A stretch of DNA of 64,000 nt, from assembly GCA_020137815.1 (NCBI GenBank), contig CM035351.1, forward strand, positions 1,240,001-1,304,000, read 5' to 3'. The DNA comes from Hormiphora californensis (lineage: Eukaryota; Animalia; Ctenophora). Below the pieces are notes generated by a model. It did not search any database. It was not told where the DNA came from and saw only the letters and a list, made by a program, of their open reading frames with translations. Positions 31,164 to 38,841 of the stretch are shown piece after piece. Position numbers and translations under genes: made by a program. The first letter of the stretch is position 1. Each line of letters opens with the position of its first letter.

Positions 31164-34100
31164 ATGGCAACGGTTATCGGAAAAGTGGATACCCTTCACG
31201 ATGAGATGATTGTAAGTAAATCGTAACCGAGTTGTCTACAACAGAATAGTATAGCATTGCTTGACCACGTTTCCTGGATTTGAACAAAACCTGACAGCAG
31301 CACAAAAAGTTATAAACCATGTTTATTAGTTAATTACTATTTCATGAACTTTCTTCTTCAGCATGACGCCCAGATGGATATCTACGGACATCGCCTAGCA
31401 ACCTGCTCATCTGATCGTTCCGTCAGGATATTTGAGGTTGATAAGAATCAGCCACCTAAACCAATCGCCACACTAAACGGGTAAGAACCAGCTAATTCGA
31501 TTACAAATCTGGTGTGTTGTTGTCTCCGAGGATCACAGTCTACACCCCCCTCTCTGTTCAGACACCATGCCACTGTAATAATAACACCATTCATTTCTTG
31601 CGTTCAGACACCACGGCCCAGTATGGCAGGTATCCTGGATGCATCCCATGTATGGGGTGGTCCTGGCCTCCTGCTCCTACGACAAGAAGGTCATCCTCTG
31701 GAAGGAGAATGAGAGGGGAGAATGGAACAAGATGTTCACCCACGAGAAACATGCTGGATCTGTGAATTCCATCCAGTGGGCCCCACCTGATACTGGCTTG
31801 TACTTGGTGTGTGGGAGCAGTGATGGGACCATCAGTATTGTTCAGGGATTTGGAGAGGACAAGTTTGAATCCAGTCATGTCATCAACAATGCACACACTG
31901 TGAGTTATACGGGATAGGACGGGGATCACTGTGAGTTATACGGGATCAGGGACTTGTTACATATCATAGAGAGGGGTAACCGAGACCGATGGGTGTGGAG
32001 GGAGACAAGTGAGCTCTGGGGGACTATAGTCGACTAGAGATCTAGTTTTATCAGGACCACGAATAAAGCTAATTTTAATAATTTCCCTTCTTTTCAGACT
32101 GGTGTAAATGCTGTTAGTTGGGCACCCTCACACCCTGCAAGTACCACACTAGATGTAAGTAGTAACCCTTCTTTTATCTTCTTTCTAAACAAATGTTCAA
32201 ATCATGTCACAATTCTTAGTGATATTCAGATTTCCGTTATAATATGGGTGCGCTATGTTTGTTTAAATACTCTCTCCCTCTCTCCGTGTCGCTCAATTGG
32301 TACTCAGTACAAGATATTCTACCTGGAACCGACCGAATCAGGAAATACTGGTCCCTGATTGGCTGATAACCAGTCACGTGACCTAAATAACGAGTTCTGA
32401 TTGGCTGGTTGTTGTTGGTACTCAGTACAAGATATTCTACCACTACCTCTCTTATCCAATGAGATCATGCATATGTTATTTAATTTTTTAGATTGGCTGG
32501 GCGGGGTAAAACCACTAAATTAAATCGTCTACTGAGTCGATATCATCTTCACTTTTTTCTGTCATGATGTCCGTTTGGTTACCCTGCCTGCTAAGTTGCC
32601 TTCTATACCTTGTACACACAGAGGACCCAAGTCAAGTGTGTGACCCGAGGGAGTGTTCCAGTTACATTACCTCCATACCATCTGGGGCTCTCACCAATGG
32701 CTCCCTAATTATACCGCAATGCAAAGAAGAAGATGGAAACTGCAGCTATTCCTTGAAGATTGTACTTGAAGATGGGGAAACTGCACTTCAGCTAAACTTC
32801 AGTCGAGATGGGATCACTTTGGCTTCTGACAAGAATGTTAACATGGACGGTAACCCGATAGAGAAAACTGAGTTAACGGGGGATAACCTGGCAGCAATAA
32901 GAATGTTTTGGGACAGATCACAGTTTGGGATAGTTTACGGGGACACCCAGTACACCGAAAAACTGACATACCCTGAGTACGTGTCGGTGGATGAGGACGA
33001 ACTAGATTCTGGAAACTGGACCATTGTCTCAATGAGAGGTTGTGATGGTGTTACGGTGTGTAACTCTTGTGGGACACCCCGTATAGAGGCTCTGGTACAG
33101 AGAGGTGACACCGTTACGGCCACTGTTACATCTCTAGATGGCGTTATAGTGGACTGGTTTTATGATGGAGAGGAGATTGAGGGAGATCACCTAGAGGGAG
33201 GATACTACATAACGACTACCCTGGATGTAATTAATCTAAGAAACAATAGTGAAGTTACCATAACGGTAACTAATATTGTGACTGGTGAATCGTCCAACAA
33301 AAGTCTGGTACTATTTGATAATGATAAGGAAAGAAATGAAAACGCAACAGATACCCCGGATAACGATAAGGAAATCAATGAAAACGCAACATATACTCCG
33401 GATAACGATAAGGAAAGAAATGAAAACGCAACAGATACCCCGGATAACGATAAGGAAAGAAATGAAACCCCAACTGTGGAAGAGGAACCTGAGGGAAGTA
33501 CAATTTGGCATGTTCTAGTGCCACTAGTAGTGGGGTTCAGCTGTGTGGCGGTGGTGCTAGTTCTAGTGATACTGACTCTGATGTTTATCAGGAGGAACAG
33601 CATCATAACTAGACCGGACACAACCGATGGTAGGGTGGGTGGTGATGATGCTATCTATATAGATCTGACAGCGGTAGGAATAACACCTGGAAGGAGAGAG
33701 ACCCTAGAAGGACCTGGGGAGTATGTGGCAATGAGTGGGAGCTCCCCCCGACCAACCCCTAAATTATCTGAACCTGGAAGGAACCAAGAAGGAGATGGGG
33801 ATGAAGAGTGTGTGTCAATGAGTCAGAAGTCCCCTCGACCATCTCCTAATTTAGCCGACTATAGAAAGAAAAAGATGCTAGAAAAGTATGGAGATGGAGA
33901 TGGAGATGGAGATGGGGATGAAGAGTTTGTGTCAATGAGTCAGAAGTCCCCTCGACCATCTCCTAATTTAGCCGACTATAGAAAGAAAAAGATGCTAGAA
34001 AAGTATGGAGATGAAGATGGAGATGGAGATGGAGATGGAGATGGAGACTATGTGGCAATGAGTGGGAGCTCCCCCCGACCAACCCCTAAATTATCTGAAC

Positions 34101-37100: not shown

Positions 37101-38841
37101 AGTCAACAAATCAAAATGAACCAATGAACACACTTTGAGTTCGAATTATAATCCCCTGTGATAGCCTATTATTTTTATGTGTGTGTTTAATGCCTAAGCT
37201 TGTACAAAGTGATTTTGGCGGAACTTGAACCATTCATGTAGATTTAAAGTTTGTAACAGGTTTTGTTAGCACTGAGTGTTTATTTCGTTTTTCTCTCAAG
37301 TAACTACTGTTTCTAAACCTTTTTAACGGGTGACAACTAAAAATTGTTACTAATTTAAAATGGCTGTAGAATTTTTCCCTTTTGAGATACAGCTTCGGGC
37401 CAGTGATAGAACGATTTTGCAGACAATTTTGAATCAGGATAACATAACGGCCATGACTAAAACGTTCATTCTCATAGCGATATCGGATCATTTCCTCTTG
37501 CCCCACCAAAGCATATAGTACGGAGATTTGAAATTTCTATGTTATCAGAAACGACCTTCCCGATGAGATAGAATTCTCATAATTGGAAGTCTGGTTGTTC
37601 ATGCCATAACCAACATAACTGCCAAGTTTGAAGATTTTGGCTCATTGGGAAGTTGGGTTTCTACGGTCATTAATGTTTCGAGAGATGTCGAAATGGCGAT
37701 TTCTCAAATTACCTGTAAACTACGCTTTGTTACAGAAGATTCTGATCAGGAAATTGAGATATATGAAGTTTGAAGCAAAGTTAATTTCGTTCAAAATTGT
37801 CTGAAAAATCATTCTATCACTGTCCCGAAGCTGTATTTCGACCAGAACAGGCGCTAGAGGTGCTAGAAAAACGTGTAGATTTCACGGACTATATGCTTTG
37901 GTGGGGCAAGAGGAAATGATCCGATATCGCTATGAGAATGAACGTTTTAGTCATCGCCGTTATGTTTTTCTGATTCAAAATTGTCTGAAAAATCGTTCTA
38001 TCACTGGCCCAAAGCTGTATCTCAAAAGGGAAAATTTCTACAGCTGTTTTAAATTAGTAACAATTTTTAGTTGTCACCCGTTAATTCTAAATTCGACCAA
38101 CTTCACTGGACTTCACAAATACCTCAACCTCTGAATTACTTAACCCTACCTTCTCTCCCCGTCAGCCGAGCTCAAAAGACTACGACACCGTCAACAAGCG
38201 CTTCGTCTCCGGTGGAGGGGACAGTATGGTCCGAGTCTGGAAGTTCTCTGGGGAAGAGTGGGCTTGTGAGGCTGAACTGAAGGGTCATACTAACTGGGTC
38301 AGGGATGTTGCGTGGGCCCCTGATACAGGGTTCACAACTAGCACCATTGCTAGTTGTTGTCATGATGGAAAGGTGATTATCTGGCAGTGTAGTGATCTCG
38401 ATAAGGGAAACTGGGAGAGCAAGACCATGCATTCATTCGATGATGTTATATGGCATCTTAGTTGGTCCGTCATGGGTGATATTCTGGCAGTTAGTGGAGG
38501 AGACAACAAGGTACGTCCACATCTGTATCCATTTGGTGGATTCTCCACCAATTTTGTAGCTCAATCCCACGTCCACTTTTCCCACGGTGTCACAGTGTCG
38601 CTATAGCTGTAACGCGCGAAAACTCCAATGTGATGAAAGTTCAGCGGAGAATCAGTGCTCTGCCACGCGCGCTCTTCTACCACAGCACAGCCACCAAGTC
38701 AATGTGGTACCCGGGAGAGGGACGCCATGTGGCACCTTTACTGACCACATGTGTAACTCTTTACAGGTGACTCTGTGGAGGGAATCCCATAAGGGAGGAT
38801 GGATTTGTATCAGTAAACAAGATAGCAACGTTGCCAACTAG
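31164..38841 (+). CDS. SEC13: Protein SEC13 homolog (WD40), 6 exons: 31164-31211, 31362-~31480, ~31608-31899, 32098-32154, ~38166-38510, ~38767-38841
   Basis: [100 protein letters not shown] borders. Confidence 0.93.
32324..32414 (-). repeat. Short interspersed repeat (translates as [28 protein letters not shown]) flanked by a 27-bp direct repeat
   Basis: Flanked by ttggtactcagtacaagatattctacc at 32297-32323 and 32415-32441; homologous copies at ~34966-35056 and 41217-41296. Confidence 0.8.
32564..34716 (+). CDS. Nested intronless type-I membrane receptor-like protein, copy 1 (signal peptide, Cys-containing and Ig-like ectodomain, TM, Tyr-motif repeats)
   Basis: 680-aa ORF with hydrophobic N-terminus; [28 protein letters not shown] followed by RR; cytoplasmic YVAM/CVSM/FVSM repeats and (GD)n runs; the paralog's [12 protein letters not shown] end lies at ~34690-34716 past an early stop/frameshift. 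Confidence 0.75.
35192..37080 (+). CDS. Nested intronless type-I membrane receptor-like protein, copy 2, with 11 YxxM motifs
   Basis: Paralog of 32564-34716; ATG at 35192 with frameshifts near 35280-35350; [26 protein letters not shown] followed by [23 protein letters not shown] repeats. Confidence 0.75.
37327..38080. mobile_element. Non-autonomous DNA transposon, ~195-bp TIRs, flanked by TTAA
   Basis: ttaa|cgggtgacaactaaaaattg ... caatttttagttgtcacccg|ttaa; mirrored ORFs 37234-37509(-) and 37898-38134(+). Confidence 0.85.

Follow-up and report, generated by a model that had tools for sequence, protein, structure and literature searches.

Receptors that have no kinase domain and recruit phosphoinositide 3-kinase (PI3K) through tyrosine motifs are a known kind. 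CD28, ICOS, CD19 and DAP10 are kinase-less PI3K-recruiting receptors with one or two YxxM motifs; phosphorylated YxxM binds the Src homology 2 (SH2) domains of p85, and phosphorylated YxN binds Grb2. The insulin receptor substrates IRS-1 and IRS-2 are cytosolic proteins with PH and PTB domains, and in IRS-1 serine/threonine phosphorylation near YxxM acts as a brake. Classical galectins are soluble and have no signal peptides. Repeated tyrosine units have been described in Monosiga, where the six disordered repeats of RTKB2 bind an SH2 domain once phosphorylated (PMC3584944). The ctenophore Pleurobrachia bachei has been reported, as summarised in PMC11797021, to lack the common pattern-recognition receptors, and ctenophores show immune-type cell behaviour (PMC10998917).

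Here we describe two genes, copy 1 and copy 2, in a window of 64,000 nt (the whole stretch of DNA analysed) from the ctenophore Hormiphora californensis (GenBank assembly GCA_020137815.1, contig CM035351.1, positions 1,240,001 to 1,304,000, forward strand). They are tandem paralogs in a family of type I membrane proteins that has no catalytic domain and appears, from the searches made, to be restricted to ctenophores, and they may well be docking receptors that recruit PI3K through YxxM motifs in their tails. The architecture of the pair, the duplication, the coding constraint on the distal ectodomain domain (D1) and the retention of tyrosine motifs in the tails of homologs are established. 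The family is apparently undescribed. The combination of a galectin fold, an immunoglobulin (Ig)-like domain and a YxxM minisatellite was not found in the literature by word search, a method that misses unnamed genes and supplementary gene lists.

A first-pass annotation of the stretch had proposed that the genes arose by tandem duplication, and this is borne out by self-comparison. Two units lie head-to-tail (Table 1), begin with the same 20-mer and, in their 5' halves, agree at 1228 of the 1339 columns that have no gap (91.7%). The junction at 34863 is spanned by contigs from two DNA runs, one covering 34693-34895 with 0 differences (X1 record 1) and the other 34644-34952 (X2 record 9). These runs represent one DNA sample, and no bridging piece is present among the listed pieces of the second sample. 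The depth of the X2 junction contig, 79.6, is near what the two versions of a SEC13 exon reach together (35.7 and 38.2), to be read with the tool's own warning that contig depth does not equal copy number. Both units carry a remnant resembling a miniature inverted-repeat transposable element (MITE) that is older than the duplication. Its parent element is about 85 nt long and very high-copy; the remnant is truncated here, with a direct repeat of about 27 nt on its flanks, and in other copies of the element an inverted terminal repeat is seen from loose contig ends.

The copy 1 product has a hydrophobic N-terminus, taken on hydrophobicity as a signal peptide, followed by an ectodomain of about 230 residues, a stalk with N-glycosylation sites and 42-nt repeats, one transmembrane (TM) helix and a tail of 335 residues. 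No catalytic domain and no PH or PTB domain was found by Pfam. The whole proteins gave no Pfam or PDB sequence match apart from TrAA12, and this match, on copy 1, was rejected as it covers the GD repeat only. This is in agreement with the first-pass view of a kinase-less receptor family of no known type. The copy 2 tail was said to hold 11 YxxM motifs and one YxN, mostly in acidic surroundings and followed by S-P-R-P-T-P. All of these were found: the YxN is YANL, an aspartate or glutamate stands within four residues upstream of 13/13 tyrosines, and TSPRPTP follows 8 of the 11 YxxM. YxxM or YxxL with an upstream acid accounts for 13/13 tail tyrosines in copy 2 and for 5/5 in a homolog, P0008, although the tail repeats are not independent of one another and represent some three independent motif positions. 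Shuffle p-values for the YxxM counts, being inflated by these repeats, carry no weight in this account. The repeat numbers of both arrays are those of the assembly only.

The tail of copy 1 is different. It has only four YxxM, the tyrosine being replaced by cysteine or phenylalanine in four of its eight units, and its stop codon precedes the YxN and terminal YVEM motifs, both of which survive only as an out-of-frame remnant. The stop is real, since a contig of the second DNA sample (X5 record 17) matches 34575-34674 with 0 differences. Copy 1 is read here as a truncated and probably weaker variant. The claim that the locus holds two intronless receptor genes therefore stands in part: copy 1 has a 680-codon open reading frame (ORF) and each copy has one TM helix, but copy 2 is frameshifted as assembled and copy 1 stops early with its four YxxM.

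The break in copy 2 lies at 35270-35286, where the assembly has 2 nt more than copy 1, and the frame from the ATG at 35192 ends after 48 residues at a stop near 35336. In 4/4 DNA runs the depth listed for this position is made up entirely of contigs that are 2 nt shorter and in frame (a single version for X1 and X2 and likewise for X6, but three for X5), and for this reason the frameshift is probably a consensus error. The assembly letters form a supersequence of two of the in-frame versions, containing both alternative bases at the two positions at which these differ. A copy-2-like contig of 347 nt with 7 differences (X6 record 27) is in frame, and P0008 reads the same DLRKC at this site; in the first DNA sample the sole contig there equals copy 1 (record 5), so that the copy 2 allele of that sample is not represented. 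That frame errors occur in this assembly is indicated by an intronless DEAD-box helicase gene at 8600-10023 (+), which we take to be DDX47-like and in which the frame of the conserved sequence changes, as judged by eye, some ten times. Copy 2 is in our judgement likely to be intact.

A phmmer search over 1.84 billion representatives returned seven matches, of which two are true relatives (P0001 and the fragment P0006); the other five (P0002-P0005 and P0007) were dismissed as repeat-driven or partial. P0001 is the unannotated P. bachei gene model sb/3461788 (EukProt; 929 aa, E 3.7e-89, 35% identity), in which three tandem units of the layout D1(-D2)-TM-tyrosine tail are fused, D2 being the proximal ectodomain domain, and the tails are short with 0-1 YxxM. 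The family thus seems to be given to forming tandem clusters. P0008 emerged from a second search, and P0009 from the cluster to which P0008 belongs (73% identity, 431 aa); these come from marine European Nucleotide Archive contigs that are 1595 and 1685 nt long, roughly the length of a transcript, and for which DNA or RNA is not stated. Among 7996 candidates a profile search brought up no homolog other than P0001, P0008 and P0006, and two metagenome-contig scans and one viral-contig scan found no relative. There was also no match among the lobate ctenophore proteins within the collection searched, which implies either a narrow family or a very divergent one. The tails of P. bachei units 1 and 3 have 0 and 1 YxxM, that of P0008 has 3, that of copy 1 has 4 and that of copy 2 has 11, so that the number of motifs does vary, as had been suggested. 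A juxtamembrane IYxxL and a subsequent YVxM align among the window copies, P0008 and P. bachei unit 3 (35% identity).

The ratio of nonsynonymous to synonymous divergence (dN/dS) between the copies is 0.50 overall (Fisher p 0.004), with a dS of 0.17. Within D1 it is 0.24 (p 0.0006), which points to purifying selection on this domain, and the expectation of a fast-evolving ectodomain finds no support in this value. Among the marine sequences 8/8 differences between P0008 and P0009 fall in D1, while P0006 differs outside D1, and several D1 versions are present in the second DNA sample.

The fold of the ectodomain was modelled with AlphaFold2 from five sequences (pLDDT 54.6; 36.2 for a single-sequence model). 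On the five-sequence model, VIA-align of residues ~7-145 placed galectins in the first 33 of 50 rows, the best having Z 8.3, rmsd 3.1 and 114 aligned residues; across the galectins Z ranged from 7.0 to 8.3 and rmsd from 3.1 to 4.4, with 112-127 residues aligned at 7-13% identity, and the best Z in a wide search was 7.7. The hidden Markov models (HMMs) PF00337 and PF12248 gave no match for the whole proteins or for D1 alone, PF12248 none even at E 10, and Foldseek of the model against PDB and BFVD gave none at E 0.001. In the ESM Atlas the clusters nearest to D1 were those of the FAMeT domain (Methyltransf_FA, PF12248), with scores of 0.93 and 0.91 and 16/30 matches, ahead of a galectin cluster at 0.85; D1 and FAMeT have 152/256 features in common with a recognition of 1647, both values being under the tool's marks for true members, and the whole ectodomain scored at most 0.80. 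The sugar-binding residues of galectins are H-x-N-x-R and W-x-x-E-x-R. These motifs are absent from an alignment of 7 ectodomains, and D1 of copy 1 has no histidine; D1 was for this reason not filed as a galectin. It is predicted to be a galectin-fold, FAMeT-like sandwich, the FAMeT link being a lead only given the low recognition. The FAMeT domain is found together with DM9 repeats and is also present in CPAMD8 (PMC5712788, PMC9363628).

D2 is predicted to be an Ig-like spacer on the glycosylated stalk. VIA-align of residues 145-228 gave Ig C-type domains at Z 7.0-7.5 (rmsd 2.4-3.1, 74-82 aligned) with Fn3 close behind, and phmmer matched SIRP Ig domains at E about 0.02. The C-strand tryptophan is kept. 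The Ig-like domain proposed in the first pass has in its favour a Z of up to 7.5 on a weak model, but it has no cysteines and no Pfam Ig match.

The reading of the pair as PI3K-recruiting docking receptors would work as follows. Clustering of the receptor would be brought about by a ligand that a microbe, a prey item or an adjacent cell carries, and a Src-type kinase would phosphorylate the acid-flanked tail tyrosines. Pairs of phosphorylated YxxM would then be bound by the two SH2 domains of p85, leading to phosphatidylinositol trisphosphate signalling in uptake, adhesion or movement, and YANL would add Grb2. By analogy with IRS-1, the S-P and T-P sites just behind each motif might serve as a brake for proline-directed kinases. 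The array may have grown by in-frame slippage or unequal crossing-over; the fact that all repeat units keep frame, and the 680-codon ORF, count in favour of the docking role.

Several observations weigh against it. Of the P. bachei units, the first lacks YxxM and the third has a single one. In copy 1 half of the units have lost the tyrosine and the last two motifs are gone, and the former loss implies that the array is not simply maximised; the first-pass conjecture that signal strength depends on minisatellite copy number finds no support in it. Outside D1, in D2, the stalk/TM region and the juxtamembrane tail, dN/dS is ~0.7 and indistinguishable from 1. The ectodomain assignments depend on a model of low confidence with middling Z scores and find no HMM for D1 or D2. 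YxxM is also compatible with an AP-2 (adaptor protein 2) sorting signal. Finally, no RNA contig was found over the copy 1 coding part 32456-33700 in 3/3 RNA runs (X7, X8 and X9), although two of these runs do carry spliced SEC13, nearly identical and at a depth of 5-12. The negative is weak, as contigs show presence and not absence and SEC13 itself is of low depth. In the third run, X9, which has the same species label, SEC13 is only ~80% identical (53 differences in 259 nt, 31163-31865), and this run is probably from another species.

A bolder form of the docking-receptor reading, which we put forward as speculative and on balance unlikely, would make the pair a pattern-recognition receptor invented by ctenophores. 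D1 would be a galectin-fold sensor of microbial or prey glycans wired to PI3K by the YxxM minisatellite, repeat number and tyrosine loss would tune the gain between paralogs and individuals, and the receptor would partially substitute for the usual recognition receptors, which are reported to be missing from Pleurobrachia-like ctenophores.

The same tyrosines might instead be YxxPhi signals that act unphosphorylated, sorting an endocytic or scavenger receptor of lectin-like type through AP-2 and docking no SH2 domain. In the tail of copy 2 each of the 13 tyrosines agrees with YxxPhi, the predicted galectin fold of D1 would suit such a receptor, and the P. bachei tails have YxxL as often as YxxM. 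A single motif suffices for sorting, however, and eleven would be needless, while the uniform acidic run ahead of each tyrosine suits tyrosine kinases, so that we regard this reading as unlikely.

It could also be supposed that the ancestral receptor worked and that what is seen here is neutral growth of a minisatellite in relaxed or dying paralogs, one or both of which no longer function. The early stop of copy 1, present in the second sample, its decayed tail end, the loss of tyrosine from half of its units and the missing RNA cover of its coding part would all fit, as would the frameshift of copy 2 as assembled and the dN/dS of ~0.7 outside D1. The dN/dS of 0.24 in D1 speaks against decay, and every repeat unit keeps the frame. 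The frameshift loses much of its force because the in-frame site accounts for all listed depth in 4/4 runs, including that of the 347-nt copy-2-like contig, because the assembled letters can be composed from two in-frame versions, and because the DEAD-box gene is frame-broken as well. Loss of function of this kind is in our view improbable.

A third possibility is an adhesion or growth co-receptor that serves development, the healing of wounds or the renewal of tentacles. It would be phosphorylated by a receptor kinase next to it and act as a membrane-bound scaffold of the IRS/Gab type, with a D1 that senses nothing. This would be in keeping with an IRS-like density of YxxM with adjoining S-P sites, with a D1 that is conserved between the copies and with the absence from it of the sugar-binding motifs of galectins. 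Among the lobate ctenophore proteins, where one would expect to meet a core developmental gene, no homolog was found, and tandem clusters with 35% identity among relatives are more typical of recognition genes; we consider this role quite unlikely.

The first-pass annotation had named allorecognition as a possible function, and there is a broad resemblance in layout to Hydractinia Alr1/Alr2 (beta-sandwich ectodomain, TM helix, tyrosine motifs, tandem cluster; 10.1101/2022.03.25.485889). The concentration of all P0008-P0009 differences in D1 and the several D1 versions in the second sample could be taken in the same sense. Against this, Pleurobrachia individuals fuse reliably when grafted (N=8; PMC11565835), and selection on D1 between the copies is purifying and not diversifying. 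By the consensus given in 10.1101/2022.03.25.485889 there is also no immunoreceptor tyrosine-based activation or inhibitory motif (ITAM or ITIM): neither YxxI/L-x6-12-YxxI/L nor S/I/V/L-x-YxxI/V/L is present in the tails of copy 1, copy 2 or P0008. In P. bachei unit 1 two YxxL lie 13 residues apart. Allorecognition is disfavoured on these grounds and appears very unlikely. That the pair is an uncollapsed-haplotype artefact, as might be produced by an error-prone assembly of a heterozygous organism (two SEC13 exon versions have 11 differences in 175 nt), is extremely improbable and largely refuted, since contigs of two DNA runs bridge the unit junction and so rule out a simple artefact of this type, the copies are unlike in tail structure and dS 0.17 apart, and the copy 1 5' region itself shows a further variant.

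The host gene is SEC13. Both receptor ORFs lie wholly within a single intron of it on the host strand, and the nesting described in the first pass is confirmed by the intron ends and phase and by the exon 1-4 joints, which are present in RNA contigs of two metatranscriptomes (X7 and X8); RNA support for splicing covers these exons, and the exon 4-5 joint was read from the DNA letters. The best cluster for exon 5 (81% identity) includes SEC13 of Bolinopsis microptera and Mnemiopsis leidyi, in agreement with the assignment of the DNA to an early-branching animal. In Hormiphora 2357 nested genes have been reported, many of them parallel to the host (PMC8527503), which makes same-strand nesting ordinary in ctenophores, and that of the receptor pair is nothing special. 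According to the same report 1109 nested genes are flanked by transposons, and spliced leaders occur on at least 56% of reads (PMC8527503). A foldback element between copy 2 and SEC13 exon 5 agrees with the former observation. A pyrimidine-rich AG acceptor is kept in both units, at 32492 and ~35127, 65-72 nt upstream of the ATG, and is a possible spliced-leader acceptor. A splice fusion of SEC13 to the receptor via the AG at 32491 was considered and excluded, as there is an in-frame stop upstream of the copy 1 ATG.

Table 1. Features of the SEC13-receptor locus (positions in the window).
Feature	Position	Strand	Basis or remarks
SEC13 exons 1-4	31164-31211, 31362-31480, 31608-31899, 32098-32154	+	Splice joints in RNA contigs; WD40
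SEC13 intron, 6011 nt, hosting both units	32155..38165	+	GT..AG ends, phase 0, read from sequence
Duplication unit 1	32217..34862	+	Self-comparison; junction bridged by DNA contigs
High-copy MITE-like remnant	32325..32404		Unit 1 5' region; summed contig depth ~1e6, loose ends
Copy 1 ORF, 680 aa, 680 codons, intronless	32564..34606	+	Signal peptide, D1, D2, stalk, TM, tail, early stop
D1, beta-sandwich of predicted galectin fold; language-model features resemble FAMeT (PF12248)	32633..33070	+	
D2, predicted Ig-like domain without cysteines	33071..33316	+	
Copy 1 TM helix	33503..33592	+	Hydropathy peak 3.06
Tail array of copy 1 with eight motif units (4 YVAM, 3 CVSM, 1 FVSM), GD runs, basic stretches	33722..34603	+	
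Decayed out-of-frame remnant of original copy 1 tail end	34607..34716	+	Comparison with copy 2
Duplication unit 2	34863..~37255	+	Self-comparison; junction bridged by DNA contigs
Same MITE-like remnant in unit 2	34968..35046		DNA contigs
Gene of copy 2; an unbroken frame would have 628 codons	35192..37080	+	Frameshift 35270-35286 in assembly
Copy 2 TM helix	36013..36087	+	Hydropathy peak 2.97
Copy 2 tail array, 11 YxxM and one YANL	36220..37071	+	Unit lengths 57-90 nt, each divisible by three
Foldback/MITE-like element, 200-nt inverted arms, 96% complementary	37323..38084		Between copy 2 and SEC13 exon 5
SEC13 exon 5 (last exon read)	38166..38510	+	Matches SEC13

Elsewhere in the window a divergent pair of acyltransferase genes, presumably TMEM68-like, is present at 16584-17427 (-) and 18908-19881 (+), at least one of them with frame breaks. 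An ORF with a ribosomal S9 domain at 10040-11977 (+), inferred to be of the mitochondrial type, contains seven copies of a 21-nt in-frame repeat (11243-11394), and another at 14152-15120 (+), with no Pfam match, contains 8.4 copies of a 33-nt in-frame repeat. Reverse-transcriptase ORFs of the long interspersed nuclear element type, one of them Pfam-confirmed, occur at 11-994 (-), 21846-23777 (-), 24745-26517 (-), 26740-29046 (+) and 29182-30126 (+), the last duplicating the 3' part of the one before it. A homeodomain exon at 57583-58296 (+) is assumed here to be of the Islet type, and long tandem arrays are found at 42197-43703 (37 nt x 41) and 59419-62751 (23 nt x 144).

If the docking-receptor reading is correct, immunoreceptor-style kinase-less signalling would be present in the sister group of other animals, and the joining of a lectin-like fold to phosphotyrosine docks would offer a concrete candidate for filling the gap in recognition receptors reported for P. 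bachei. Homologs with 0, 1, 3, 4 and 11 YxxM form a natural series through which motif number could be related to PI3K output. Such genes are easily overlooked, being nested, invisible to Pfam and, in this case, broken by a probable assembly error.

Compared with described systems, the predicted fold of D1 is like that of the galectins (PF00337), but the identity is low, no HMM matches and the sugar-binding motifs are absent; the FAMeT domain (PF12248) is the best language-model neighbour, again with no HMM match. Both the pair and Hydractinia Alr1/Alr2 are receptors of non-bilaterian animals that occur in clusters, are confined to one lineage and have a beta-sandwich ectodomain (predicted here) and tyrosine motifs that vary between paralogs (10.1101/2022.03.25.485889), whereas the Alr genes are described there as multi-exon, with V/I-type Ig domains, ITAM/ITIM and hypervariable distal domains, and those described here are intronless, with YxxM and a D1 conserved between the copies. 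With the RM2 repeats of Monosiga RTKB2 (PMC3584944), compared by description, the pair shares a receptor tail of repeated disordered tyrosine units that dock SH2 domains (a docking that is predicted here), while RTKB2 itself includes a kinase, its six repeats are larger, and the SH2 domain that it binds is that of Src. Like CD28, ICOS, CD19 and DAP10, the pair is of type I membrane topology, with no catalytic domain and with YxxM and YxN in the tail; it differs from them in having a tandem YxxM array and a D1 predicted to be of galectin and not Ig fold, and no sequence homology to them was found. With IRS-1 and IRS-2 it has in common a long disordered region of many acid-flanked YxxM, several then followed by S-P, but it has a signal peptide and no PH or PTB domain, and its array is carried on a TM helix and built from near-identical DNA repeats.

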